Assembly: GCA_040389865.1 (NCBI GenBank)
Contig: JAZJZM010000019.1
Coordinates: forward strand, 17,423 to 81,422
Origin: Bacteroidota bacterium
Lineage (GTDB): Bacteria > Bacteroidota > Bacteroidia > 2-12-FULL-35-15
Length of the DNA stretch: 64,000 nucleotides
Direction of reading: 5' to 3'
The first letter of the stretch is position 1, and each line of letters begins with the position of its first letter. Positions 24,397 through 44,400 of the stretch are shown one piece after another. A program made the position numbers and the translations under genes. The notes beneath the pieces were generated by a model that saw only the letters and a program-made list of their open reading frames with translations, was not told the DNA's origin and did no database searches.

Positions 24397-25176
24397 ATGA
24401 ATTATTTGATTGTTCCAAATACGTGGAAAGTTTTTTTGAATGAGACGGGCGATATGTTCCGTTTTACAGGCCGATTTTTTAAAGAAGTTTTTAACCCGCC
24501 TTATGAGTTTCGTGAACTGCTGAAACAATGTTTTTATATTGGCTACAAATCACTTGCCTTGGTGGGGATCACGGCATTTATTATGGGCCTGGTTATCACT
24601 ATTCAATCGCGGCCCACACTTGTTGAATTTGGTGCGGAAGCATGGCTTCCAAAAATGGTATCGGTATCACTTGTGAGGGAAATTGCTCCAGTGATCACTG
24701 CACTGATCTGTGCGGGAAAAATCGGCTCCAGTATTGGAGCAGAGCTTGGATCCATGAAGGTTACAGAGCAGATTGATGCAATGGAAGTTTCGGGAACTAA
24801 TCCTTTTAAATATTTAGTTATTACAAGAGTAATGGCAACTAGCTTGATGATCCCGGTGCTTGCCGTTTTTGCGGATGCTATTTCGCTATACGGAGGGTAT
24901 TTAGGCACAAACATACGTGGTGTAGTGAGTTGGGACCTTTACTGGAGCCAGGTTTTTCAAACCTTGGCATATAGTGATATTTTACCTTCGGTTTTTAAAA
25001 CATTTTTCTTTGGATTTGCTATTGGAATAATAGGCTGTTATAAAGGATATCACTCCCAAAAAGGAACAGAAGGGGTAGGGCAGTCGGCAAACTCCGCAGT
25101 TGTGATCTCATCACTTCTTGTTTTTATACTTGATTTGATTGCCGTTCAGATCATTGATATTTTAAATTTTACCTGA
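24397..25176 (+). CDS. mlaE: MlaE-family ABC transporter permease
   Basis: Multi-TM protein with an MlaE/YrbE-type central motif ('VSLVREIAPVITALICAGKIGSSIGAELGSMKVTEQIDAMEVSG'). Confidence 0.8.
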   Translation: MNYLIVPNTWKVFLNETGDMFRFTGRFFKEVFNPPYEFRELLKQCFYIGYKSLALVGITAFIMGLVITIQSRPTLVEFGAEAWLPKMVSVSLVREIAPVITALICAGKIGSSIGAELGSMKVTEQIDAMEVSGTNPFKYLVITRVMATSLMIPVLAVFADAISLYGGYLGTNIRGVVSWDLYWSQVFQTLAYSDILPSVFKTFFFGFAIGIIGCYKGYHSQKGTEGVGQSANSAVVISSLLVFILDLIAVQIIDILNFT

Positions 25177-25177
25177 G

Positions 25178-25954
25178 ATGGTCAATTCCGAAGATCCTAA
25201 AATAATCAATAAAACAGAAGTCAGGGATGTTCCTGTTATTCAAATCAGGAACTTAAATAAGTCTTTTGGGGATAATCATGTGTTGCGAAATTTTAATATT
25301 GATCTATACAAAGGCGAGAATCTTGCCGTAGTTGGTAAATCGGGCTCAGGTAAATCGGTGCTGATCAAATGTATCATTGGGTTGATGAAGCCGGATTCAG
25401 GAACCATTTTTATGTTTGAAAAAAATATTCCTGATCTGAATAATGCAGGGCTGGATCGGATCAGGGCAAAAGCAGGATTTCTTTTTCAAAGTAATGCACT
25501 CTATGATTCAATGACGGTGAGAGAAAATCTTGAATTCCCATTGAGAAGGCATCGTGCAGGTGTTCAGACAGAAAAAGTGAATGATCTGGTGATGGAAGCA
25601 TTAACAAATGTTGGTCTTTCAGAAACAGTAAATATGATGCCTGCAGAACTTTCAGGTGGAATGAGAAAACGTATAGCCCTCGCACGAACATTGATCCTTA
25701 GGCCTAAAATTATTTTTTATGATGAACCAACAACCGGACTAGACCCGATTACCGGAAAAGAAATTAGTAACCTGATATTGAAAGTTCAAAAATTATATCA
25801 AACATCATCTGTCATTATTTCTCACGATATGAGTTGTATAAAAATAACTTCGAATCGTGTTGTACTATTAATAGATGGGACTTGTTACGCAGAGGGAACA
25901 TATGAGAAACTAAAAAAGTCTGAGGATAAAAAGATTAATCAATTTTTCGAATAA
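25178..25954 (+). CDS. mlaF: MlaF-like ABC transporter ATP-binding protein
   Basis: Walker A 'GKSGSGKS', signature 'LSGGMRKRIALART', Walker B 'IFYDEPTTGLD'. It starts 2 nt after the mlaE stop. Confidence 0.85.
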   Translation: MVNSEDPKIINKTEVRDVPVIQIRNLNKSFGDNHVLRNFNIDLYKGENLAVVGKSGSGKSVLIKCIIGLMKPDSGTIFMFEKNIPDLNNAGLDRIRAKAGFLFQSNALYDSMTVRENLEFPLRRHRAGVQTEKVNDLVMEALTNVGLSETVNMMPAELSGGMRKRIALARTLILRPKIIFYDEPTTGLDPITGKEISNLILKVQKLYQTSSVIISHDMSCIKITSNRVVLLIDGTCYAEGTYEKLKKSEDKKINQFFE

Positions 25955-25957
25955 AAA

Positions 25958-26923
25958 ATGGAAAAAGACATATTGAAAAACATAAGGTTAGGGGTTTTTG
26001 TATTAGTTGGTGCCATTTTATTGATCATTGCGCTCTATGTAGTAGGTAATAAGCGAAATCTTTTTGGCAAAACATTTAGTATCAGTGCGAAATTTTATAA
26101 TGTGAATGGACTAATGAAAGGAAATAATGTTCGTTTTGCCGGAATAGATGTTGGTACTGTGGATCATGTGGAAATTGTGAATGATTCTTCAGTAAATGTA
26201 ATTATGATCATTGAAAAGGACCTTCAAAAATTTATAAAAAAAAATGCCTTAGCAAGTGTGGGAACTGATGGTTTGATGGGGAATAAACTTGTAAATATTA
26301 ATGTAGTAGATGAATTAGCGCCCGTTATTGAGGATGGAGATGAGTTGCGAACCCTACGTTCTATCGAAACAGATGAAATGACACGTACATTGAATGTAAC
26401 AAATGAAAACATTAAAGTGATCAGTGCAAATGTTCGAAATATTACGGATAAATTGAGTAGTAAGAATAGTTTGCTTACAATTTTGATGGATACTGTGGTT
26501 GCGGGAAATATAAAAACTGCGATCATAAATATAAAGGAGGTAGGGGGGCAAGCTGTTGCTGTTACCAAAAATTTCGAACAAATTACAAAAAAGATAAGGG
26601 ATGGGAAAGGTACTATTGGTGCTTTGATCACTGACAGTTCTCTTTTTTTAAATATAAATCATGTTGTGAATCAATTACAAAAAGTTAGTGATACTGCCGG
26701 AGTTGTTGCTGGTGATGTTTCATCCATTATAGGAAAAATAAAAGAAGGTGATGGTTCTGTTGGGAATTTATTGACCGATACCACATTCGTTCACAATCTT
26801 AACCAAAGTGTAAAAAGCATAAATAGTGCAGCAAAAGGTTTTGATGAAAACATGGAAGCGCTTAAGCATACTATTTTGTTAAGGAGATATTATAAGAAAC
26901 AAGATAAACAGAAATCTAATTAA
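25958..26923 (+). CDS. mlaD: MlaD/MCE-domain protein
   Basis: N-terminal TM followed by an MCE domain ('NGLMKGNNVRFAGIDVGTVDHVEI'). It is the third gene of the putative mlaEFD operon. Confidence 0.75.
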   Translation: MEKDILKNIRLGVFVLVGAILLIIALYVVGNKRNLFGKTFSISAKFYNVNGLMKGNNVRFAGIDVGTVDHVEIVNDSSVNVIMIIEKDLQKFIKKNALASVGTDGLMGNKLVNINVVDELAPVIEDGDELRTLRSIETDEMTRTLNVTNENIKVISANVRNITDKLSSKNSLLTILMDTVVAGNIKTAIINIKEVGGQAVAVTKNFEQITKKIRDGKGTIGALITDSSLFLNINHVVNQLQKVSDTAGVVAGDVSSIIGKIKEGDGSVGNLLTDTTFVHNLNQSVKSINSAAKGFDENMEALKHTILLRRYYKKQDKQKSN

Positions 26924-27126
26924 TTTTTTTCATTGATTACATTTTTATGCTAAATGCTCCAGCGCTCAAGAGACAAAAAAAACTTTTAGAAAGATTTTGA
27001 CAAACAATTAAATGATCAGGTGATAAAAATCAAAAAATAGGTTGATTCGAATCATTGAACAAACAGGATTCTGAAAATACATTTGTGTACAATTAAATTG
27101 ATAATAAATTCTTAAAATTTTAAAAA

Positions 27127-27588
27127 ATGACACTAGTATTAAAAAGAAATGGAAACTTGTTTCCAAGAGTAGTAAATGATTTAATGGAAAGCGGAACTGT
27201 ATTCAGTCCTGATCTTCTTGATTTTAATAATAATTTAATGAACTGGGATTTCTCTTCAAAAGTACCATCAGTAAATATTACGGAGACTGAAAAGGAATAC
27301 AAAATTGAATTGGCTGCTCCGGGGCTAGAAAAAAAAGATTTCAAAATTGAAGTAGAAAATAAAGTTTTAATCATTAGTTCTGAAAAGGAGGAAGAAAAAA
27401 AAGAAGAGGATAAAAATTATAAGAGAAGAGAATTCTCTTACAGTAGCTTTTCTCGTTCATTCCAATTGCCTGAAGATATACTTTCGGATAAAATTGACGC
27501 AAAGTATGAAAATGGAATTTTGAAATTATCAGTTCCTAAGAAAGAGGTATCTGTATCAAAACAAAAAAAAGAAATAAAAATTTCTTAA
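27127..27588 (+). CDS. Hsp20/alpha-crystallin small heat-shock protein
   Basis: 'PSVNITETEKEYKIELAAPGLEKKDFKIEVENKVLIISSEK...FSYSSFSRSFQLPEDI..DKIDAKYENGILKLSVPKKE' is a canonical ACD core. Confidence 0.85.
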   Translation: MTLVLKRNGNLFPRVVNDLMESGTVFSPDLLDFNNNLMNWDFSSKVPSVNITETEKEYKIELAAPGLEKKDFKIEVENKVLIISSEKEEEKKEEDKNYKRREFSYSSFSRSFQLPEDILSDKIDAKYENGILKLSVPKKEVSVSKQKKEIKIS

Positions 27589-27608
27589 AAAAGTATTGTA
27601 AAAAAGAT

Positions 27609-27639
27609 CGCCCCTTAAGCGGGGCGCACTTTTTTGTTT
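27609..27639 (+). terminator. Probable rho-independent terminator after hsp20
   Basis: GC stem 'cgcccc'/'ggggcg' followed by 'cacttttttgttt'. Confidence 0.5.
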
Positions 27640-27736
27640 AATGGCTTTTGAAAAAAAGCATTAAAAATAACACCGTGTTAATTCATAAATGAAGATAAAA
27701 TAACTGCCATATTAAGACTTAATAATAAACCTGTAT

Positions 27737-28819
27737 ATGAAAGAAGTATCCGTTTTAAGTGAGCCCCAAATAGCTCCTTCTGTATCGTTGATTATTCCCA
27801 CAGACAAAAGATATCCTCAATATAGGATTGATGAAGGCCGGGTCAAAGCATTAGTAAAAAGAGCAGAAAATGAATTGTTAGATGAGTTTTCTGAAAAAAA
27901 AACTATGGTTATAATCAACAAACTTCGTAAACTTATTTCTACTATTGACCATAAGCAATTATCAAAGGCTCTGGCAGTATTTGTTTCTTTAGAAAAAGAA
28001 AAAATGATCTATTTGCCTTTTCATGTTCAGGAAAAACTTATTATAGATTCATCTTTTGAAATAAGAGACTTGTTATATTCCACGAAAAACAGTTATGGTT
28101 ATTTAGTGTTAGTAATTGCCAGTCATCACGCAAAAGTTTATCGTGGTTACAATAATAAATTAGTTGAAATTGATTTAAGCAACATGCCTTTAAACGTAGA
28201 AGAGGTTAAAAGGGATCTACCTTCGAAGGTTGCTAATTTTTCAACTGCTGATGCCGTTAAGGAAATTAATCTTGAAAAATACCTGAAAAAGATTGATGAT
28301 GCTTTAACCGTGAAGCTTAATGAAATGGAATCTCCTGTAATTGTATGTGGAGTTCAAAAAACTTTAGGTCATTTTAAGAAGCTAACAAAAAACAGTAAAA
28401 AAGTAGTCGCCTTTGTGGAAGGGAGCTATGAAAAATCTTCCCCGAAAGAATTATATAAGGCGATTGAACCCGCTATTGCAAGTTGGCGTGAGTTGGATCA
28501 GCAAAATTCACTTAATAAGTTAGAAGACGCTGTAAATAGAAAGGAATTTGTGTATGGAATAGAGAATGTTTGGCGTGCGGCAATGGAAAAAAAAGGACGG
28601 TTATTAATTGTTGAGAAAGATTTTGTTAGTACTGCAAAAATTGGGAAGGATGAATATACTTTGAACACTACTGTATTTGATAAGAACGATCCAAAGGTAT
28701 TCCCTGATGTTGTGGATGATTTAATTGAACTGGTATTGAAAAATGATGGTGATATTGCCTTCGTTGAAAGTGGTAGATTAGAGAAATACAAAGGCATTGG
28801 ATTAATTACCCGTTACTAA
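27737..28819 (+). CDS. eRF1/Pelota-fold protein lacking the GGQ motif (bacterial eRF1-like; putative ribosome-rescue or hibernation factor)
   Basis: Segments resemble eRF1 domain 2 ('SYGYLVLVIASHHAKVYRGYNNKLVEI', 'RDLPSKVANFSTAD', 'SPVIVCGVQKTLGHFKKL') and domain 3 ('FVYGIENVWRAAMEKKGRLLIVEKDF'). The GGQ position is occupied by NFS/FST. Confidence 0.55.
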   Translation: MKEVSVLSEPQIAPSVSLIIPTDKRYPQYRIDEGRVKALVKRAENELLDEFSEKKTMVIINKLRKLISTIDHKQLSKALAVFVSLEKEKMIYLPFHVQEKLIIDSSFEIRDLLYSTKNSYGYLVLVIASHHAKVYRGYNNKLVEIDLSNMPLNVEEVKRDLPSKVANFSTADAVKEINLEKYLKKIDDALTVKLNEMESPVIVCGVQKTLGHFKKLTKNSKKVVAFVEGSYEKSSPKELYKAIEPAIASWRELDQQNSLNKLEDAVNRKEFVYGIENVWRAAMEKKGRLLIVEKDFVSTAKIGKDEYTLNTTVFDKNDPKVFPDVVDDLIELVLKNDGDIAFVESGRLEKYKGIGLITRY

Positions 28820-28988
28820 GAAAGTGGTAGCATATTCAAATAAAAAACTATATGAATATGCGCATTTTGAATGAGTAAAGAAAAATGCAATAGCTTTCAT
28901 GAGTTATTTTAAACTTTGAAATGAAATTTTATTTGGCTCTTGATCTTTAGTGGATTTTATTTTCCAACCGTATTTTTGAAAAGCTGAT

Positions 28989-29180
28989 ATGAATAATAAT
29001 AAATTTTATTTGTTAATTATTTTTATACTTCTTGGAATTGTTGCATTTCTTGGTGTTCTTTTGTTTATGGGTGATTTAGGGAAGTACTGTGTGCCTATTT
29101 CTAAAGAGATGCATCGTCTTCCTGTAAATACTTTGAGTAAAGATTCATTAAAAATTGTTGATTCATTGACTAAGGAGTAA
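28989..29180 (+). CDS. Small hypothetical membrane protein (63 aa)
   Basis: An ORF in an otherwise empty gap. One TM segment 'LLIIFILLGIVAFLGVLLFM'. Confidence 0.3.
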   Translation: MNNNKFYLLIIFILLGIVAFLGVLLFMGDLGKYCVPISKEMHRLPVNTLSKDSLKIVDSLTKE

Positions 29181-29240
29181 TATTCTGTTCATTTTTTGTA
29201 ATGTTGAAGGTTCTTTAAAAGGAGCTTCAACATTATAGAT

Positions 29241-29666: not shown

Positions 29667-29743
29667 TAGGTAATTTATGATGTTAAGTTTAAAGAAAACG
29701 AATCGAAAAATAGTTGATGGATTTTAATTTAATAAAAGAACAT

Positions 29744-30385
29744 ATGTTTAAAGATAGATATGATGCAGCGATGGAACTTGCGTTAGAACTGGAAAAATAT
29801 AAAGGTAATGACGGAATCGTTTTGGCTATTCCTCGTGGCGGAGTACCAATAGGTTATGTAGTTGCAAAGGATCTTGGATTTCCGTTGGAAATCATTCTTT
29901 CAAAAAAAATTGGGCATCCTTCTAATCCTGAATATGCTATTGGTTCAGTTTCATTAGATGGAATTGTAATTAATGATGATGTATCCGATGTTTCAACTGA
30001 GTATATTTATAAAATAGCCGATAAAATCCTTCAGGACCTGAAAACTAAGTTTAAATACTATATGGGCGATCGGGAACCAACGAATTTAAAAAATAAAACC
30101 GTGATTATTGTTGATGATGGAATTGCAACGGGTAGCACTATTATTGCTACTATTAATTCGGCCAGGAAAATGAATCCCAAAGAAATTATTGTTGCAGCAC
30201 CGGTTGCCTCGCCACTATCGATCCAAAAAATAGAAAGTATTTCGGATGAAATTATTATTCTTTTAGCGCCTCAGAATTTTATGGGTGTAGGGCAATTTTA
30301 TTATGATTTTTCACAAGTAGAAGATGAAGAAGTGATTTTGCTATTGAAAGAAGCAAACGCCAATGCGAAATTGGTCAAAACATAA
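29744..30385 (+). CDS. Predicted phosphoribosyltransferase (type I PRT fold)
   Basis: 'MFKDRYDAAMELA...IVLAIPRGGVPIGYVVAKDLGFPLEI' and the PRPP-binding 'VIIVDDGIATGSTIIAT'. ATG 29744 was chosen because it fits the family N-terminus; the ORF is open from 29714. Confidence 0.75.
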   Translation: MFKDRYDAAMELALELEKYKGNDGIVLAIPRGGVPIGYVVAKDLGFPLEIILSKKIGHPSNPEYAIGSVSLDGIVINDDVSDVSTEYIYKIADKILQDLKTKFKYYMGDREPTNLKNKTVIIVDDGIATGSTIIATINSARKMNPKEIIVAAPVASPLSIQKIESISDEIIILLAPQNFMGVGQFYYDFSQVEDEEVILLLKEANANAKLVKT

Positions 30386-30881: not shown

Positions 30882-31715
30882 TTAAGGATGAACTACAAAA
30901 ATTGGATATGTTGCTATTGCGCTTATTGTTGCTAATAATGGTTGTTTTCGAAAAAACCTTTCAAGAATATTTCTATGCCGTTCTTCCATCACTACCAGAT
31001 CTGTTTGGTTTTCGAGAATAAAATCATCAAGTGAGTCATCAATGTTGTCGGTGAAATTTATATCAACATTGTATTTTATTTTTCCATCTAATGATTTTTT
31101 TATTTCTTCTTTTATTCCGATGAATGCTTTTTGGCTCTTTTCATTATCTTCCTTGGTTAAAAACAAAAATGTAATTTGGGCCTCAAAAAAATTTGCAAAT
31201 TCATAAAACTGTTCCAGTGCGATACTATCTATCTTGTCAACTATAATTGGATAAAATATGTTTTTATACTTTTCAAACAAAAGGTCTTCCGGAACTATTA
31301 AAAGTGGACATTCTGACTCCTTGCTTGCTTTATATGTATTTGTGCCAAAAAAAAATTGTTTCAGATTATCCGGGCCATTAGTACCCATAACAATCATTGT
31401 GTTTTTCGTCACCGCTGATGCGATAGTTTTCGACAGGGATTTTGTAGTTATATCAACTTCATATGTTGTTGGGATATTATACATCTTGTTAATTTCAACA
31501 CTCATTTGTTTTAACTTATTCGAAACCTTGAGAGAGTTGTTTCGGATGTTACTGCCAACTCCCTCACCAAGACTTACCGCAGTTTCAAAATGAATTTGCT
31601 GTACATTAAATAATATCAGTTCTGCATTGATAACTTGAGCAAGCATTGCCGCGTATTCCGAAGCGTTGTTTGCTGAATCTGTAAAGTCAATAGGACAAAT
31701 AATTGTTGTTTTCAT
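30882..31715 (-). CDS. Universal stress protein, tandem UspA domains
   Basis: 'MKTTIICPIDFTDSANNASEYAAMLA..' and a second half 'KNIFYPIIVDKIDSIALEQF...LVVMEE' give two Usp-like alpha/beta units. Confidence 0.8.
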   Translation of the reverse strand: MKTTIICPIDFTDSANNASEYAAMLAQVINAELILFNVQQIHFETAVSLGEGVGSNIRNNSLKVSNKLKQMSVEINKMYNIPTTYEVDITTKSLSKTIASAVTKNTMIVMGTNGPDNLKQFFFGTNTYKASKESECPLLIVPEDLLFEKYKNIFYPIIVDKIDSIALEQFYEFANFFEAQITFLFLTKEDNEKSQKAFIGIKEEIKKSLDGKIKYNVDINFTDNIDDSLDDFILENQTDLVVMEERHRNILERFFRKQPLLATISAIATYPIFVVHP

Positions 31716-31733
31716 AAATAAGGAACATATTTA

Positions 31734-31894
31734 AGAGCCTGTTTAAATTTTATATAAAAGAATAACAATATTGCTTGTTGGAGCCATCCAATTCTCGACT
31801 CCGCTCGAAATGACCATGTGCGCTGGTATTTCGAGCGGAGTCGAGAAATCGTGTGAAGGCTGGAAACTGTTTGAATAAAATTTAAACAGGCTCT
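31734..31894. mobile_element. MITE-like element copy A (161 bp) with 20-bp terminal inverted repeats and a central 22-bp-stem hairpin
   Basis: The TIRs are 'agagcctgtttaaattttat' (31734-31753) and its reverse complement 'ataaaatttaaacaggctct' (31875-31894). The central 'aattctcgactccgctcgaaat'-gaccatgtgcgctggt-'atttcgagcggagtcgagaaat' is a perfect inverted repeat. Confidence 0.7.
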
Positions 31895-31928
31895 AAAAGG
31901 CTGAAAAATTATTGGCGTTTCTTATTCT

Positions 31929-32597
31929 TTAATAGACAAATACTTCTGTATCAATTTCAAGTTTGTTTTCAACAAGACCAATTCCTGGCGCTGACCAAGC
32001 TGCACGTGCTGCATCTCTTTTTTCAGCCCAAGAACGAACTTTTCCTGTTAGAATAACTTTGTTCCCAATTGTTTCTATGTTGATTTTTTCTGCATCAATT
32101 GTTGCGCTCCTGTGGAATGCAGAAACGATCTTTGTTTTTATTTCTCTTGCAGTGACCTGTGGTGTTACTTTTATATTATTACTTATTCCACGAACCCCCA
32201 ATAAATATTGTACTGCGCTGCTTGCTGCGTTTTTTTGAAATTCCCAATCGGTTTCTCCTTCTAGTGTTAACCACCCGTCTTCTACCTTTAATTTTATTTT
32301 TTCTTGTTGAACTGCGCTATGCCATTTTAGAGCGCTAATTGCGGCTTCGGCTATTTCTGTATCACTCTTTTTTCCATGCCCGGCTAATTTCACTTCAATA
32401 TCCACAGCAACTGCTTTTACTCCGGTAACTCTTTTGGTCGCTTTTTCTGCGGTTAGTTTTTTGGAATATGTATCTACTAGTCCAGAAAGGGTTACGACTC
32501 CGTTTTTTACTGCTACTCCAATTTCTGTAGCTTTCATTAATGGTTCCCATTTAAGTTCGTCCATAACATCTTTTTGAATTTCTGAATCTGTTCTCAT
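31929..32597 (-). CDS. BON-domain protein (two BON domains; OsmY-like)
   Basis: '[19 protein letters not shown]' is a typical family start. The BON units are '[36 protein letters not shown]' and '[41 protein letters not shown]'. The ORF is open upstream to 32654. Confidence 0.75.
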
Positions 32598-32785
32598 ACT
32601 TTTTTGTTTTTTTAATAATAAATATTTAAATAATTTTATGCAAAGTAAACTCATTATTGAAATCTATTCAATGATGAATTACAAAAAATGGAATGATCCA
32701 CATCACGAGTTTATTTTTTTTAATTGAAAATTTTATTTGATTCATGATACGGTAAATTTTCAGAAAAAAAAGGTTTAGGACTTTT

Positions 32786-33169
32786 TTACATCCATTTAGA
32801 AAGGAATTGAGCTAATTCTTTTCTTAGGCCATTGAAAATTTTTTCGAACCCTTCCACGCTATTTCTTTGCATTGAATGGTCCAAAAACTTTTTACTTTCA
32901 TTTGCAACCGCTTTTTTATTTACTTTTTCTTCGAGTGATCTTTCATGGCTGTTAATTTCATGTTTTAAGATATCTAGCTGTTCGTTTTGAGCGATTAGCT
33001 GGTTTTGAAAATGTTCAACAAAGGCGCGTACTTCTTTTGACGTATTTTTTTTTGCAATTTCTGAAATTCTATTTTGCATGATCTGAATTTCGTCTTTATA
33101 AAAAACTAATTTGCTTAGCCACGTTTTGTGATCCTCGTGCAACTGGTAAATATTTTTTGTAGTTTCCAT
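32786..33169 (-). CDS. Hypothetical coiled-coil protein (127 aa)
   Basis: Intact ORF co-oriented with the flanking Usp and BON genes; no domain recognised. Confidence 0.45.
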   Translation of the reverse strand: METTKNIYQLHEDHKTWLSKLVFYKDEIQIMQNRISEIAKKNTSKEVRAFVEHFQNQLIAQNEQLDILKHEINSHERSLEEKVNKKAVANESKKFLDHSMQRNSVEGFEKIFNGLRKELAQFLSKWM

Positions 33170-33273
33170 GTTTTATTTATTTAGTTAATAGTGTGTTGAT
33201 CTTCCATTTTAAAAGCCTATGGTAAATTATTGTAAAAGGGTTATTTGGTTTCAATCATTAAAGGAGTGTTTTT

Positions 33274-33657
33274 TTAATAATTGTTTTCACTGATTTTCCC
33301 GCTGAGTGCTTCACCTTGCCGGTTTTGTTCTTCAAGTGTCCAACAATCAGTTACTGTTGTTTCGAGCCAAACTCGCCATGAGTTCCTGTACACCTTAACT
33401 GATATGCCATATTCGCTGTTGAAACATTGCTCAAGATGGGATACAGTCATTTGTGGTGTAATAATTATACATGTTTTTTCTTCATTCGCACCGTACTTAG
33501 CTATTGTTTTAACAGTAGATTTTACCAGTTTATGCGGAGATAATGATGTAGTTGTGAGTTTTGTTAAAAAAAAATCGATTTTCAAAAAGGGAAACATCTT
33601 TGTAAATTCTTCTTGTATTTCAAATAATGTACTATTGTCGTCAACTGTTATTTTCAT
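33274..33657 (-). CDS. Hypothetical protein (127 aa)
   Basis: Intact ORF co-oriented in the stress island; an ORF on the opposite strand (33281-33685) overlaps it and is judged less likely. Confidence 0.4.
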   Translation of the reverse strand: MKITVDDNSTLFEIQEEFTKMFPFLKIDFFLTKLTTTSLSPHKLVKSTVKTIAKYGANEEKTCIIITPQMTVSHLEQCFNSEYGISVKVYRNSWRVWLETTVTDCWTLEEQNRQGEALSGKISENNY

Positions 33658-33711
33658 TTTAATATGTTGTATTTCATTGTTCTAAAGCGTCAAATTATTT
33701 TTTTGTGAGTT

Positions 33712-34533
33712 TTATTCTGGTAAAGCAAGTAATGGAATGTGAGTATGGAATGCCATACGCTTTGTATTCCTTTCCTGGAAAATATTTTCGAATAATGTGT
33801 GTTTGCGAGGTATCATTACAATTAGATCAGCGTTGTGTTCCTTTACAAATTCATTTATCCCTTCTACTATATCTTCATTCTCCACAAAGTCGAATGAATG
33901 ATTTAAACCTTCAAATGAATGGACCAGTTGTGTTCCACCAACTGTTTTTTTTATCGGTGAAATTAATTCTCCTTCACTTGAAACATTCAAGATATATAAT
34001 TGAGAATTGAAAAGTTTAATGAATTCTTTTATAGGCTCCATGGATCTGGCATCCATATTTTGATAGTCACAAGCTAATACAATTTTTCTGAGATTCTTAA
34101 ATACCACCTTATCGTTAATGGCAAGAACAGGGCGTTTTGCTTTCCGAATTAAAGTGGTGGTAACGCTGCCAATTAATTTTTCGCTCAAATAACCTGCCCC
34201 ACGAACCCCCATTACAATTAGATCAATTTTTTCTTCTTCTACTATTTCATTTATTTCATCAACGGCAAAACCAAGTGTAGTTTTACACTCAATGTTCAAT
34301 TCACTTCCGTGCTTAAATCGTATATTTTCCTTTATTTTGGTTAATACTTTTAAATTGTCTTTTTCTATTTCATCTAAAGGCATTATAAAAGGAACATCTG
34401 ACGGAACGGTAGGTATATGAAATACATGAAATAAAAGAAGTTTCGATTTGGTAAGCTTTGCTAATTCAGCTGCGTAATTTATTGCATTGTTTGCGCTGTC
34501 TGAAAAATCTGTGGGGGCGAGAATTGTTTTCAT
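33712..34533 (-). CDS. Universal stress protein, tandem UspA domains
   Basis: 'MKTILAPTDFSDSANNAINYAAELA...' and a second Usp unit '...LIVMGVRG..'. It is a paralog of the 30882-31715 gene. Confidence 0.8.
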   Translation of the reverse strand: MKTILAPTDFSDSANNAINYAAELAKLTKSKLLLFHVFHIPTVPSDVPFIMPLDEIEKDNLKVLTKIKENIRFKHGSELNIECKTTLGFAVDEINEIVEEEKIDLIVMGVRGAGYLSEKLIGSVTTTLIRKAKRPVLAINDKVVFKNLRKIVLACDYQNMDARSMEPIKEFIKLFNSQLYILNVSSEGELISPIKKTVGGTQLVHSFEGLNHSFDFVENEDIVEGINEFVKEHNADLIVMIPRKHTLFENIFQERNTKRMAFHTHIPLLALPE

Positions 34534-37271: not shown

Positions 37272-40200
37272 ATGGCAAAGAGAAAAAAATCGGAGGAATT
37301 AATTATTGCCAACAAGGAACTTATCTTTCAAAATGAAGAGAAGGAAAAGCGGGCAGAAGAGTTAATTATTGCAAATATCGAACTTGCTTTTCAAGATGAA
37401 GAAAAAGAAAAACGTGCTGCGGAGTTAATTTTAGCTAACATAGAGTTAGCTTTTCAGGATGTGGAGAAAGAAAAAAGAGCGGCTGAATTAATTATTGCTA
37501 ACAAGGAACTTGTATTTCAAAACGCAGAGAAAGAAAAACGTGCGGCCGAGTTGATCATTGCTAATAAAGAACTTGTTTTTCAAAATGATGAGAAAGAAAA
37601 ACGGGCTGAGGAATTGATCGTTGCTAATAAAGAACTTGTTTTTCAGAATGATGAAAAAGAAAAACGTGCTGCGGAGTTGATCATTGCAAACAAAGAACTT
37701 GTTTTTCAAAACGATGAGAAAGAAAAACGTGCCGCTGAGCTGATCGTAGCTAACAAAGAACTTGCTTTTCAAAACGAAGAGAAAGAAAAACGTGCAGCCG
37801 AGTTAATTGTTGCTAATAAAGAACTTGTTTTTCAGAATGATGAAAAAGAAAAACGAGCTGCGGAGTTGATCATTGCAAACAAAGAACTTGTTTTTCAAAA
37901 CGATGAGAAAGAAAAACGTGCCGCTGAGCTGATCGTAGCTAACAAAGAACTTGCTTTTCAAAACGAAGAGAAAGAAAAACGTGCAGCCGAGTTAATTGTT
38001 GCTAACAAAGAACTTGCTTTTCAAAATGACGAGAAAGAAAAACGAGCGGCTGAGTTGCTCATCGCTAATAAAGAACTGATCTTTCAAAACGATGAGAAAG
38101 AAAAACGAGCGGCAGAGCTAATTGTAGCGAACAAAGAACTTGCTTTTCAAAATGATGAAAAAGAAAAACGTGCAGCCGAGTTATTCATAGCTAATAAAGA
38201 ACTTGTATTTCAAACCGGGGAAAAAGAAAAACGTGCCGCGGAGTTGGTAATAGCCGACATAGAGCTTGTTTTTCAAAATAAAGAAAAAGAAAAGCGCGAA
38301 ATCGCAAATAAAGAACTTGAAGCATTAAGTTATTCCGCAAAATTAGCATCTCAATATTCTCTTAGCCTGATTGAAGCAAGTCGGGATCCCTTAGTTACTA
38401 TCAGTACAGAAGGCAAGATCACTGATATGAATCAGGCAACTGTAAATATAACAGGCTTGACTCGTGAAAAACTTACGGGTACCGATTTTTTTGATTATTT
38501 CACCGAACCACAAAAGGCACGTGAAGTATATCAGGAAGTATTTGCGAAAGGATCTGTTGCCGATTCTCCGCTTACTCTTCGTCATAAAGCAGGGAAACTT
38601 ACTGATGTATTGTTCAATGGCTCGGTTTATAAAGATGATCAGGGAAATGTACTGGGAGTGGTGATCGTGGCGAGAGATGTTACTGCCCAAAAATTACTTT
38701 CTAAATATTCGTTAAGTCTTATTGAGGCAAGTCTTGATCCATTGGTTACGATAAGTACTGAAGGTAAGATCACGGATATGAATGAGGCCACTGCAAATAT
38801 TACCGGTATGAGCCGTGACCAATTAACGGGTACCGATTTTTTTGATTATTTCACCGAACCACAAAAGGCTCGTGAAGTTTATCTGGACGTGTTTGCGAAA
38901 GGTTCTGTTGCCGATTCTCCACTTACACTTCGTCATAAGGATGGGAAGCTTACGGATGTATTATTCAACGGATCGGTTTATAAAGACGACAGAGGGAATG
39001 TGCTTGGTGCCGTTGTGGTAGCAAGAGATATTACTGAACAAAAAAGAATAGCAACTGAATTGACTGAAGCGAAAATATTTGCCGAGTTGGCAACAGGTAT
39101 TGCGGAGGAAGCAAAAGCTAAAGCCGAAAGTGCCACACGAATAGCCGAAGATGCCGTGAAAGCGAAGCAACAATTTTTGTCAAACATGAGTCACGAAATT
39201 CGTACACCAATGAATGCGATCATTGGATTTACGAAAGTAGTATTAAAAACAGAGCTGTCGGTAAAACAAAAGGAATATTTGTCGGCCATAAAAATGAGTG
39301 GTGATGCATTGATCGTGCTCATTAACGATATACTCGATCTTGCTAAGGTAGATGCAGGAAAAATGTCCTTTGAGAAAACACCTTTCAAAATGAAAGCATC
39401 CATAGCATCCATGCTTCATTTGTTTGAGACAAAAATTCAGGAAAAGAATTTACAGCTTGTTAAGGAATACGACAATAAAATTCCTGATGTGTTAGTTGGC
39501 GATCCGGTTCGTTTACACCAGATCATATTAAATTTGGTGAGTAACGCTGTAAAGTTTACAACTTATGGAAAAATTACTGTAAGTGTTCATTTAGTGAGTG
39601 AGGACGAAGAAAAAGCAACCATTGAATTTGCAGTTATGGATACCGGGATTGGAATAGCGGAAAATAAAATAGAAAGAATCTTCGAAAACTTTCAGCAGGC
39701 AACCAGCGGCACTTCAAGATTATTTGGTGGAACAGGATTAGGACTTGCAATTGTTAAACAATTGGTAGAACCGCAAGGGGGAAGTCTTTTTGTAACAAGT
39801 AAAATTGATGAGGGTTCTACTTTTAGTTTTACGTTAACTTTTCAAAAAACAAAAGCGGAAGCCGAATTGGTAACTGAAGTTGCGGAATTGGATTCCGAAA
39901 TAAAAAATATAAAAGTATTGGTGGTGGAAGATATTGCACTCAATCAATTACTAATGAAAACATTGTTGGATGATTTCGGATTTGAACGCGATATTGCTGC
40001 AAATGGACAAATAGCCATCGAAAAATTGCAAGCTAAATCTTATGATATTATTTTGATGGACTTGCAAATGCCTGTAATGAATGGCTTTGAAGCTACCGAA
40101 TATATTCGTAATAAAATGAATTCTAAGATCCCGATCATCGCCTTAACTGCCGATGTAACTACAGTGGATCTGGCAAAATGCAAAGCGGTTGGCATGAATG

Positions 40201-40676
40201 ATTATATTGCAAAGCCTGTTGATGAAAGAGTATTATATAGTAAAATAGTGGGCCTGGTAAAAAAGCCTGTATTTGTTAATATCCAAAAGGAAAAAGAAAA
40301 CATTGAAACTGAGAAGTTAAAATGTATTGACCTGAAATATTTAAACCACCGCACAAAATCAAATCCAACAATAATGATGGAAATGATTTCACTTTATTTG
40401 GAGCAAACTCCACCTTTGATCAGCACAATGAAACAAAGTTTGTTGGATCAGGATTGGAATTCATTGCGCGCTGCAGTACATAAAATGATTCCCTCCTTTT
40501 CAATAATGGGCATTCATATAGATTTTGAAAATATGGCGAAAAAAGTTCAGGAGTATTCAAGTATCCAGGAACGAACGCATGAGATACATGACTTAGTGAT
40601 ACAGCTTGAAGATGTTTGTTTACAGGCATGTAAAGAGTTGGAAGAAGAATTTAATACGATTAAAAATAAGAAATAA
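37272..40676 (+). CDS. Hybrid sensor histidine kinase: 16 x 21-aa coiled-coil repeats, 2 PAS, HisKA, HATPase_c, REC, HPt
   Basis: Repeats 'ELIIANKELVFQNDEKEKRAA' x16. PAS blocks 'LIEASRDPLVTIS.EGKITDMN.AT.NITG'. H-box 'SHEIRTPMNAIIGF'. G2 box 'GGTGLGLAIVKQLVE'. REC 'ILMDLQMPVMNGFEAT'. HPt 'AVHKMIPSFSIMG'. Confidence 0.9.
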   Translation: MAKRKKSEELIIANKELIFQNEEKEKRAEELIIANIELAFQDEEKEKRAAELILANIELAFQDVEKEKRAAELIIANKELVFQNAEKEKRAAELIIANKELVFQNDEKEKRAEELIVANKELVFQNDEKEKRAAELIIANKELVFQNDEKEKRAAELIVANKELAFQNEEKEKRAAELIVANKELVFQNDEKEKRAAELIIANKELVFQNDEKEKRAAELIVANKELAFQNEEKEKRAAELIVANKELAFQNDEKEKRAAELLIANKELIFQNDEKEKRAAELIVANKELAFQNDEKEKRAAELFIANKELVFQTGEKEKRAAELVIADIELVFQNKEKEKREIANKELEALSYSAKLASQYSLSLIEASRDPLVTISTEGKITDMNQATVNITGLTREKLTGTDFFDYFTEPQKAREVYQEVFAKGSVADSPLTLRHKAGKLTDVLFNGSVYKDDQGNVLGVVIVARDVTAQKLLSKYSLSLIEASLDPLVTISTEGKITDMNEATANITGMSRDQLTGTDFFDYFTEPQKAREVYLDVFAKGSVADSPLTLRHKDGKLTDVLFNGSVYKDDRGNVLGAVVVARDITEQKRIATELTEAKIFAELATGIAEEAKAKAESATRIAEDAVKAKQQFLSNMSHEIRTPMNAIIGFTKVVLKTELSVKQKEYLSAIKMSGDALIVLINDILDLAKVDAGKMSFEKTPFKMKASIASMLHLFETKIQEKNLQLVKEYDNKIPDVLVGDPVRLHQIILNLVSNAVKFTTYGKITVSVHLVSEDEEKATIEFAVMDTGIGIAENKIERIFENFQQATSGTSRLFGGTGLGLAIVKQLVEPQGGSLFVTSKIDEGSTFSFTLTFQKTKAEAELVTEVAELDSEIKNIKVLVVEDIALNQLLMKTLLDDFGFERDIAANGQIAIEKLQAKSYDIILMDLQMPVMNGFEATEYIRNKMNSKIPIIALTADVTTVDLAKCKAVGMNDYIAKPVDERVLYSKIVGLVKKPVFVNIQKEKENIETEKLKCIDLKYLNHRTKSNPTIMMEMISLYLEQTPPLISTMKQSLLDQDWNSLRAAVHKMIPSFSIMGIHIDFENMAKKVQEYSSIQERTHEIHDLVIQLEDVCLQACKELEEEFNTIKNKK
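37296..38304 (+). repeat. 63-bp tandem repeat array (16 units) encoding a 21-aa (three-heptad) coiled-coil repeat
   Basis: Several units are identical over more than 120 bp, e.g. 37650-37780 and 37840-37970. Confidence 0.9.
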
Positions 40677-41433: not shown

Positions 41434-44400
41434 ATGAGATCGATCGCTACCACTAAAAAGAAGAAATCACCAACCAAAAAAAATGTTGAAGATCATTCTT
41501 TTCCTATCGTGGCTATTGGCGCTTCATTAGGTGGTTTAGAAGCGCTTACCTCTTTATTGAAAAATTTACCTTCCAATACCGGAATGGCATATATTTATGT
41601 GCAACACTTAAGCCCTGACCATAAAAGTTTACTAACTTCTATAGTATCCAAGATAACTAAAATGAAAGTTCAGGAGATAGAGGATATGGCGCACATGGCT
41701 CCGGATAATGTGTATGTGATCCCCTATAATAAAATAATTAAAGTTACTGACGGACACATTAAATTGCTTCCCCGTCCAAAAAGCAGTTCTGCCATTTCCA
41801 TTGATGTTCTGTTCTCGTCACTTGCTAAAACGCATAAAAAGAATGTTATTGGTGTGATCCTTTCTGGCAGCGGCACTGATGGTACAAACGGATTAAAAGC
41901 GATCAAAAAAGCGGGAGGAATGACAATTGCACAAGATGATTCCGCGCAAGCAAACAGTATGCCCAACTCGGCTATTGCCTCTAATGTTGTTGATTTTATT
42001 TTATCTCCTAAAGAAATTGCCGGGCATTTAGCAACATTTAGCAAAAATGATTTTTTGAAACCTGACCTTGAAAGTAAACAGAAAGAAGAAGTTAGTGAAA
42101 ATAGTAATCATGATCTGAAAACTATTTTCGGAATTTTATTTAAAAAAACCGGTGTGGACTTCAATCATTATAAGATGTCCACCATTAAAAGGCGATTGAA
42201 CAATAAAATGCTTCAATGCGGAGTAAAAACAGTAAAGGAATATGTAAAATTATTGCTCAAAAAAAACAGTGAGGTTGATCTTCTTTACAAGGATCTGCTT
42301 ATTAACGTAACTAGTTTTTATAGAGATAAGGACGCATTTCAGTATTTAAAAACAACCTTGTTTCCAAAGCTTCTTGAGGGTAAAGCACCGGGAGAAGTAA
42401 TTCGGATATGGATTCCAGCCTGCTCTACCGGTCAGGAAGCTTATTCCATTGCCATGATGCTGACTGAGCTGCAGGAAAATAAAAAAAAGAAAATACCTTT
42501 CCAGATCTTTGGTACCGATCTTAGCGATCAGGCAATTAGTGCTGCACGCAAAGCCGAATATTCGGCAAGTGATCTTATTCCTATTTCAAAGAAATTCAAA
42601 GATCGTTACTTTACTAAAACGGGTGACAACTACCGTATTGTTAAAGAGCTTCGCGAATTGTGTGTATTTGCTCCTCATAATATTCTGCGCGATCCACCTT
42701 TTTCACGTATGGATTTTATCAGTTGTCGCAATCTTCTTATTTATTTTGATTCTTCTGCACAGAAACGGGTTTTTTCAATCCTGCATTTTGCTTTGAATAA
42801 CCAGGGGAGTTTAATGCTTGGTCAAGCAGAAACGGTAGGCACGTCTTCTCAGCTTTTTATCACTACAAATGCTAAATTTAAGATTTACTCTCGTAAAAAG
42901 AGTACCGGAGTGAGGAAGATACTTGAATTAACACCACATTTTCCGCGTACAAATTTTTATAGTAAAAAAATAAACACACCTGTTAAAAGTTTGAGCGTAA
43001 ATTTAATGGGTGTTGAGAATGCTATTGATTCTGCTATTCTCTCAAAGTACATGCCTGCGTGTGCAGTTATAAACAAGGACATGGAAATTCTCCAGTTCAG
43101 AGGACCGATCTCTTTATTTCTCGCACATCCTTCCGGCAAAGCAAGTCTAAATATTTTAAAAATGACAAGACCTGAATTTGCCTTTGAACTTCGTAATGCA
43201 ATTCAAAAAGTAATAAAAACAAAACAGTCGGTGCAAAAAGCGGGCATCGAAATTAAGGTCGAGTCTGTTTTTCGTATGATGTCTTTGGAAGTTTCTCTTC
43301 TTAAGATTGATTGGGACGAGCCATTGCTACTTATTGTTTTTACATTACAGGAACAGGTTGAAAAATTTATTGAAATTGGTAATAGCGGGAAAAGCAATTC
43401 GATCCATGATGCCCAAAGAATAGTAAAGCTGACCGAGGAGTTGAACAATACCCGGATGGAAATAAATTCCATTATCGAATCGCAAGAAGCTACTTTCGAG
43501 GAATTACAAGCAGCCAATGAAGAAATTGTTTCAAGTAATGAAGAGTTTCAAACCTTAAATGAAGAACTTGAAACATCGAAAGAAGAAATTGAGACTACCA
43601 ATGAAGAGCTAATTTCTATCAATCAGGAATTACAAATGCGTAATGATCTTTTAACAGAATCGCATGAGTATTCGGAGGCCATCATTGCTACCATCCATGA
43701 GCCTATGCTTGTGCTAAACAAGGACTTTATTATACAATCCGCCAATAAATCGTATTATAAAAAATTTCTTGTTAAAAAAGAAGAAACGGAAAAGAAATTG
43801 TTTTTTGAATTAGGAAATAAGCAATGGAATATTCCAAAACTTCGTGAGGTGTTAAATGATATTCTTACCAAAAACAAGAGTTTTGAAAATTTTGAAGTGA
43901 CACATGCATTCCCGGGAATAGGCGAAAAAATAATGTTGCTTAATGCACATCTTGTCCTTCAAAAAGAGAACAGAGAACAACTAATTCTGCTTGCCATTGC
44001 TGATGTTTCCGAGTTAAGGAGATTGAGTATAGAGCTCAAAGTGAAAGACGCTAAAGTATTAAAAAACGAAGAGAAAGGGAAATGGGCGGCAGAGTTAGTT
44101 ATTGCCAACAAAGAACTTGCCTTTCAAAATGAGGAGAAAGAAAAACGAGCAGAGGAGTTGATCATTGCCAATAAAGAACTTGTTTTCCAGAACAATGAAA
44201 AAGAAAAACGTGCTGCGGAGTTGGTCATTGCAAACAAAGAACTTGCTTTTCAAAATGATGAAAAAGAAAAACGTGCTGCCGAGTTAGTAATTGCAAACAA
44301 AGAGCTTGCATTTCAAAACGAAGTGAAAGAAAAACGAGCTGCTGAGTTGGTTATTGCAAACAAAGAACTTGCTTTTCAAAATGATGAGAAGGAGAAACGT

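Follow-up and report, generated by a model that had tools for sequence, protein, structure and literature searches.

The 64,000-nucleotide stretch analysed here (the window; G+C content, 36.6%) comes from the genome of a Bacteroidota bacterium (GenBank assembly GCA_040389865.1, contig JAZJZM010000019.1, positions 17,423 to 81,422 of the forward strand), and at positions 27737-28819 it carries a gene for a 360-residue protein, the query of our searches, which belongs to the same family as the ribosome hibernation factor Balon. We consider it quite probable that this gene encodes a Balon-type ribosome hibernation factor that would act as described for Balon. The window yielded no second Balon-like gene. 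The gene, its domains and its motifs are located as follows.

27737..28819, plus strand: coding sequence of the Balon-like protein of 360 residues (Pfam baeRF_family3), from the open reading frame (ORF) and its translation, with an ATG start and the stop codon included.
27770..28087, plus strand: N-terminal domain, similar to that of eRF1, approximately residues 12-117, without NIKS; its counterpart in Balon binds the decoding centre.
27812..27817, plus strand: Tyr26-Pro27, aligned by phmmer and hmmsearch with His27-Pro28 of Balon, in the loop that joins strand 15-21 to helix 28-50.
28088..28522, plus strand: middle (M) domain, RNase-H-like as in eRF1, approximately residues 118-262; the baeRF_family3 match covers residues 122-285.
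28172..28249, plus strand: loop of residues 146-171, placed by the Balon alignment at the site of the eRF1 GGQ loop and of the "lasso" loop of Balon.
28235..28246, plus strand: N167-F168-S169-T170, aligned with G-G-S-D of Balon.
28523..28816, plus strand: C-terminal domain, Pelota/L7Ae-like, approximately residues 263-360; its counterpart in Balon contacts EF-Tu.
28628..28705, plus strand: insert in the C-terminal domain, approximately residues 298-323; the model predicts short strands here (300-302, 309-310 and 321-322).

A first-pass annotation of this DNA, made without database searches, had delimited the same plus-strand ORF of 360 codons, and all the peptide strings quoted there are found in its translation. 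Orthologues of the same length occur in three metagenome-assembled genomes (MAGs) of Bacteroidota/Bacteroidia, at 93, 85 and 84% identity. Strong purifying selection is indicated by the Nei-Gojobori ratios of nonsynonymous to synonymous substitution rates (dN/dS) against the orthologues at loci L001-L003, which are 0.087, 0.112 and 0.099. Given these same-length orthologues and the low dN/dS values, 27737-28819 is a real gene under selection. The exact protein sequence has no record in public assemblies, the closest one being that of a Bacteroidota MAG with 93% identity.

Balon was found by cryo-electron microscopy (cryo-EM) of ribosomes from cold-shocked and stationary-phase Psychrobacter urativorans (Helena-Bueno et al., Nature 2024, PMC10901736). 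It is a distant homologue of aeRF1 that lacks NIKS and GGQ and occupies, together with EF-Tu(GDP) and independently of mRNA, the A site of both vacant and translating ribosomes; its His-Pro (HP) motif contacts A1492 and A1913, its lasso loop lies around A2602, and it also has a bL27-trap loop and a beta-hairpin in the C-terminal domain for EF-Tu (PMC10901736). According to cryo-EM (PDB 8V9J, 8V9L and 8V9K), this mode of A-site binding is shared by two mycobacterial homologues, Msmeg1130 and Rv2629, and the characterised relatives preserve the nascent chain when bound to ribosomes (PMC10901736). The first-pass annotation had stated that no bacterial member of the eRF1 clade is characterised experimentally, which is contradicted by the ribosome cryo-EM structures, genetics and biochemistry available for this family (PMC10901736). 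From the perspective of comparative genomics, these proteins are part of the baeRF-1 clade defined by Burroughs and Aravind in 2019 and represented in Pfam by baeRF_family1-12, for which catalytic inactivity, insertion into the A site and a link to translational shutdown had been predicted (PMC6514570).

Sequence profiles establish that the query is a member of this family. The Pfam model baeRF_family3 (PF18845) matches residues 122-285 with 105.7 bits (E = 4.5e-30; gathering cut-off, 31.5), a score nearly equal to that of Balon itself (105.6 bits), and baeRF families 6, 7, 8 and 11 match more weakly than family 3. The NCBIfam model NF052287, "AOC03_06830 family ribosome hibernation factor", aligns with the query over its positions 4-361 of 361 (267.8 bits, E = 1.9e-79), and the match to NF052288 is marginal (E = 0.062). 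Two sets of homologues were examined, one of 58 close sequences from the Bacteroidota and another of 131 more distant ones; all 58 of the former match NF052287, the best of them at E = 2.2e-82. The sole phmmer match among PDB sequences is Balon chain 8rd8_B, aligned almost from end to end (query 7-360, chain 8-369; E = 2.8e-29). The family profiles retrieve this chain at E = 3.8e-48 and, with the broader profile, 8.6e-67, and the latter also finds Msmeg1130 (E = 8e-7). When Balon is the phmmer query, Msmeg1130 and Rv2629 go undetected (E > 10) despite being A-site binders, so that our protein, which Balon matches at 2.8e-29, lies well inside the divergence of the verified members. In the PDB entries 8RD8, 8RDV and 8RDW, chain B, which is Balon, carries the deposited name "Methyl-accepting chemotaxis protein", and a reading of the match by name would mislead.

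After clustering at 50% identity, 2,518 cluster representatives match the query at E <= 1e-3, and 331 do so at E <= 1e-30; with clustering at 90% the relatives number at least 385. Balon homologues have been reported in about 20% of representative bacteria and in 23 of 27 phyla (PMC10901736). With these figures, the earlier view of a family normally missing from bacteria, with rare bacterial members, cannot be maintained. The possibility that the gene is a component of a defence system was also considered and rejected, as the PADLOC-DB models gave no family match at E <= 0.01.

A structural model of the query, built with AlphaFold2 (AF2) on 58 homologues, has a mean predicted local distance difference test score (pLDDT) of 82.4. 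The five best Foldseek matches of this model in the PDB are chains of Balon and Msmeg1130 (4e-28 to 2e-18), with three Balon chains ranked first (4e-28 to 1e-26) and followed by Msmeg1130 (9e-20). Further down are archaeal aRF1 (5.5e-15), eRF1 (about 1e-13), Rv2629 (4.6e-13) and Pelota/Dom34 (1e-8 and weaker). On account of these matches the predicted structure confirms a three-domain eRF1/Pelota fold, in accordance with the first-pass annotation, which had proposed such a fold and this very comparison as its check. The nearest relatives of the query are Balon proteins rather than Pelota. Structural alignments with Pelota/Dom34 span just 119-197 residues, and the N domain of the query matches the N domain of eRF1.

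We relied on structure searches because sequence alone does not establish kinship with eRF1. When the family profile was aligned by hhalign with the M and C domains of human eRF1, the E-value was 0.25 for the profile of 58 sequences and 0.011 for that of 131, neither of them significant, and only one stretch of the C domain (VYGIENVWRAAMEKKGRLLIV) was recovered, in the same register as in the first-pass annotation; sequence comparison alone was consequently rejected as proof of this relationship. The eRF1 segments that the annotation had quoted are genuine, since a stretch of 182 residues containing all four of them is identical to residues 145-326 of human eRF1 (1dt9_A). Its alignment by eye is in itself not above chance, and it is the structure and the profiles that validate it. 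The M domain of the model consists of strands 121-126, 133-138 and 141-145, the loop 146-170, a helix at 171-196, a strand at 201-205 and a helix at 207-216, and the order of these elements fits the pairings proposed by eye for this domain.

The loss of the catalytic motif is established by direct inspection of the protein, which contains no GGQ, GG, NIKS or NIK and no Gln in residues 146-175. NIKS and NIKL are found in none of the 58 relatives, the highest frequency of Gln in any column of the loop is 5% in the 58 homologues and 8% in the 131, and the three GGQ tripeptides present among the homologues are all at non-homologous positions. With the GGQ lost, no peptidyl-tRNA hydrolase chemistry would be expected, as the first-pass annotation had anticipated from the replacement of GGQ; judged from the sequence, the protein should neither recognise stop codons nor release peptides. 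What stands at the GGQ position is a tetrapeptide, NFS[D/T], that hardly varies within the Bacteroidota clade (N 93%, F 98%, S 88%) and that we place there because it aligns with G-G-S-D of Balon. The replacement of GGQ by N-F-S, claimed earlier, is recovered through this Balon alignment, in which G-G-S is opposite N167-F168-S169, but not in the ungapped alignment on which the claim was made, where GGQ falls on F168-S169-T170. The model confidence is low for loop residues 160-166. In the N-terminal domain, Tyr26-Pro27 occupies the position of His27-Pro28, which a motif scan identifies as the sole HP dipeptide in Balon, and YP or FP is kept at this position across the subclade of the query. In the C-terminal domain, phmmer aligns the insert at about 298-323 with Balon residues 311-335, the lengths differing by a net 2 residues, and the clade shows no variation at D324, D327 and D328. 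Taking into account that the mapping is approximate, the insert is likely the counterpart, in the model, of the beta-hairpin with which Balon binds EF-Tu. An insert in this domain has been described for baeRF-1 families (PMC6514570).

The protein with which the query shares most is Balon itself (AOC03_06830, UniProt A0A0M3V8U3; PDB 8RD8, 8RDV and 8RDW). Both belong to the same Pfam family, have similar lengths (369 and 360 residues) and three domains, lack NIKS and GGQ, have a Pro-containing dipeptide in the loop that in Balon contacts the decoding centre (His-Pro in Balon, Tyr-Pro in the query), an FxxRD motif (FATRD and FEIRD, respectively) and an insert in the C domain, and are encoded among stress genes that include Hsp20 and OsmY-like genes. 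The differences are an identity of only about 21%, GGSD in Balon against NFS[D/T], a loop on the side of the peptidyl transferase centre that is about 8 residues longer in Balon, a host from the Gammaproteobacteria instead of the Bacteroidota, and the absence of an adjacent RaiA gene by the query. Msmeg1130 of M. smegmatis and Rv2629 of M. tuberculosis have larger insertions in the C domain and marginal sequence similarity to the query (NF052288, E = 0.062; broader profile, E = 8e-7), and archaeal and eukaryotic aeRF1 (4AF1, 1DT9) possess the GGQ and NIKS that are both missing here. Within the baeRF-1 clade, the query is a member of family 3. The catalytic loop is poorly conserved in the widespread families of this clade (PMC6514570), unlike the near-invariant loop tip of the Bacteroidota sequences.

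The features that surround the gene are the following.

24397..26923, plus strand: upstream genes for an MlaE-like permease (24397-25176), an ABC ATPase, MlaF (25178-25954), and MlaD (25958-26923), assigned with Pfam.
27078..27085, plus strand: TACATTTG, found by pattern search and in full agreement with TAnnTTTG, the Bacteroidetes -7 consensus, 41 nt before the Hsp20 start codon.
27127..27588, plus strand: Hsp20/alpha-crystallin gene (PF00011, E = 6.2e-26), 148 bp upstream of the Balon-like gene.
27609..27636, no strand assigned: GC-rich hairpin of 6 G-C pairs followed by a T-run, terminator-like, between Hsp20 and the Balon-like gene.
Downstream, plus strand: two small ORFs of unknown function and then a phosphoribosyltransferase gene (29714-30385).
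30882..34533, minus strand: stress-gene block, assigned with Pfam, with Usp (30882-31715), a triple-BON OsmY-like gene (31929-32654) and a tandem Usp (33712-34533).
Same region, minus strand: two unknown ORFs of 127 residues between the triple-BON gene and the tandem Usp, and an unknown ORF of 106 residues downstream.
Further downstream, plus strand: TerB, a response regulator, an AraC-type regulator and a PAS hybrid histidine kinase, assigned with Pfam.

The first-pass annotation had described the region as a stress locus, and the presence of Hsp20, two Usp genes, the triple-BON gene and TerB bears this out. The usual gene neighbours of Balon are stress genes such as RaiA, Hsp20 and OsmY (PMC10901736), and the adjacent Hsp20, OsmY-like BON and Usp genes make the context of the query match the published neighbourhoods. 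Hsp20 adjoins the Balon-like gene in the window and in loci L001-L003 and L006, with orthologue identities of 59% or more, and not in more distant members of the clade; Usp genes are frequent immediate neighbours in the fetched loci. In 11 of the 12 Bacteroidota loci that were fetched, among them L004, L005 and L007-L012, a tblastn matrix places MlaE and MlaF no more than about 6 kb from the Balon-like gene. This linkage holds down to 37% identity of the Balon-like protein, with variable orientation and side, and the Mla transporter is not among the family neighbours named in the text of the Balon paper (PMC10901736). It may reflect either inherited synteny or a functional connection with envelope-lipid stress.

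Several other observations concern this neighbourhood. One of the proteins of 127 residues (33274-33657, minus strand) has no Pfam match but has kin in L006 (around 11300) and in L009/L010 (1342-1752), with identities of 49% and 30%, and it could belong to the same stress island as a further uncharacterised component. In the closest relatives, about three additional genes (about 3.3 kb; L001 9571-12783, L003 9398-12693) lie between the small ORF that follows the Balon-like gene and an ORF of 141 residues. These genes are missing from 28820-29240 of the window, so that the stress island differs here by a local insertion or deletion. In the distant subclade, genes for phosphoenolpyruvate (PEP)-utilising enzymes, similar to pyruvate phosphate dikinase or PEP synthase, recur near the Balon-like genes (L007, L012 and one further locus). 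Pyridox_ox_2 is found nearby in L009-L012 and one further locus, YdjM in L011 and L012, and a Crp-type regulator that binds cyclic nucleotide monophosphates in L006 and L012; this recurrent gene set recalls dormancy regulons.

Elsewhere in the window, positions 1629-13307 (plus strand) contain an ORF of 3,892 residues that consists nearly throughout of the G-X-Y repeats of a collagen triple helix (Pfam Collagen, E = 8e-208, 9 stretches), which is unusually long for a bacterial collagen-like protein. At 41434-46944 (plus strand) lies a fusion of 1,836 residues that combines a CheB methylesterase, a CheR methyltransferase, PAS, HisKA/HATPase and a receiver domain, adjoined by a PAS hybrid kinase of 1,134 residues (37272-40676).

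With regard to transcription, the exact match upstream of Hsp20 conforms to TAnnTTTG, the -7 consensus of Bacteroidetes promoters. In the interval 27580-27740 there is no such box, exact or relaxed, a sigma-70 scan between Hsp20 and the Balon-like gene gives 8 sites compared with 11.8 expected in shuffled sequence, and the 100 nt that precede the start codon of the Balon-like gene contain no recognisable promoter. The hairpin between both genes is kept as a structure in the three orthologous loci (L001-L003, approximately 7870-7900) despite changes in the sequence of the stem, which is CGCCCC/GGGGCG in the window and CGCCTCC/GGGGCGG in L002 and L003. It either keeps the two genes apart at the level of transcripts or acts as an attenuator. 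The 5' leader was also considered as a structured RNA or thermometer and rejected, with a fold z-score of -0.97 and the terminator hairpin as its sole notable consensus structure; at gathering thresholds, Rfam yields nothing in the whole window.

The reading that we favour, a hibernation factor of the Balon type, brings these observations together. It builds on what is established for the gene: family membership, the three-domain fold, the loss of the catalytic motifs, purifying selection and the stress-gene context. Ribosome binding, dependence on EF-Tu, the inducing stress and co-regulation with Hsp20 we infer by analogy with Balon and its mycobacterial homologues. The trigger would be a stress such as heat, stationary phase, or envelope or osmotic stress, upon which the protein would enter the A site of idle ribosomes independently of mRNA. 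The loop of the N domain with Tyr26-Pro27 would contact the adenines of the decoding centre (A1492 and A1913 in Balon), the loop of the middle domain would present its conserved NFS[D/T] tip on a shorter segment devoid of Gln, and the C domain, with its putative beta-hairpin insert, would recruit EF-Tu in its GDP form. The result would be that translation is silenced and that ribosomes are protected until conditions improve. Among the roles suggested by the first-pass annotation (ribosome rescue, splitting or hibernation), hibernation is the one carried out by the closest characterised relatives, and the other two are disfavoured.

A number of observations weigh against this interpretation. 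The query does not reach the curated equivalog cut-off of NF052287, which is 330 bits, and the other Bacteroidota relatives probably fall short of it as well, since the E-value of the best member is barely better than that of the query. The His of the HP motif is replaced by Tyr, and in the larger sister subclade of Bacteroidota, mostly Chitinophagaceae-like, the sequence at this position is PFEPKM and the dipeptide is absent; the loop at the GGQ/lasso position is not only shorter than that of Balon but has a different conserved motif. The predicted isoelectric point is 8.7, compared with 4.9 for Balon. No RaiA/HPF gene was detected in the window by tblastn below E = 1, although this is a weak test, made with an E. 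coli RaiA query. The conserved terminator-like hairpin lies between the gene and Hsp20, which makes their co-transcription uncertain, and we found no literature with an experimentally tested Balon in the Bacteroidota.

Some of these same observations would favour a different view, namely that the Bacteroidota proteins are diverged paralogues which bind the ribosome in another way, or bind another target, for instance as a factor free of EF-Tu or one tied to Mla and envelope stress. The match of the whole clade to NF052287, with the query below its cut-off and the best E-value only slightly better than that of the query, the shorter loop with NFS[D/T] in place of GGSD, the basic character of the protein and the proximity of MlaE and MlaF in nearly all fetched loci are all compatible with it. 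We nevertheless regard it as rather unlikely: the similarity to Balon is full-length with small indels, the mycobacterial homologues are far more divergent and yet share the same binding mode, and the Mla linkage could be synteny inherited within one phylum. A related proposition, that the Bacteroidota clade is a mechanistically distinct Balon variant in which the short NFS[D/T] loop, the aromatic Tyr-Pro and a basic surface would entail another mode of ribosome binding, and that, separately, the linkage with MlaEFD and Usp would mark a module coupling envelope-lipid stress to hibernation, seems to us doubtful. On present evidence the Tyr-Pro, the short NFS[D/T] loop and the Mla linkage are local peculiarities and not a new mechanism.

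A role closer to that of Pelota/Dom34, in which the protein would recognise ribosomes on truncated or damaged mRNA and promote dissociation of the subunits or rescue instead of storage, was one of the options raised for baeRF-1 proteins by Burroughs and Aravind in 2019 (PMC6514570). Pelota is likewise a catalytically inactive A-site binder, and its M and C domains are common with those of the query. Its structural match is, however, weaker and partial, covering only the alignment lengths given above, with an N domain in the query that resembles that of eRF1 and not that of Pelota, and the partners with which Pelota works, ABCE1 and Hbs1, are not encoded nearby. The bacterial relatives that have been characterised put ribosomes into hibernation and do not split them; they bind vacant and translating ones alike in an mRNA-independent manner and preserve the nascent chain. 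We consider a rescue factor very unlikely. As for an active alternative release factor, that is, an eRF1-type peptidyl-tRNA hydrolase used under stress, the three-domain architecture of eRF1 is present, and a few baeRF-1 families, such as family 10, do keep a conserved Gln (PMC6514570). In the query, GGQ, NIKS and any Gln in residues 146-175 are missing, Gln does not exceed 8% in any loop column of the 131 homologues, and the GGQ tripeptides of the homologues lie elsewhere; this reading is hardly credible and, as far as the sequence can tell, is effectively refuted.

The family to which the query belongs is known and widespread, and the understanding of how the family works is unchanged. The Bacteroidota clade is an annotation gap: public records name its members "hypothetical protein" or "baeRF family 3", and the designation "hypothetical protein" persists because the cut-off of NF052287 is narrowly missed by the query and probably by the other members. 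Ribosome hibernation is essentially unstudied in the Bacteroidota, and a preprint of 2025 considered that the phylum may hold unappreciated hibernation strategies. The locus described here and the large clade around it show that factors of the Balon type occur in this phylum. What is gained is a better annotation of these genes, a candidate with which the study of hibernation in the phylum could begin, and a link open to testing that joins Balon-like genes with Mla, Usp and Hsp20 stress modules; if true, the linkage with Mla and Usp would represent a previously unrecognised module in the Bacteroidota.

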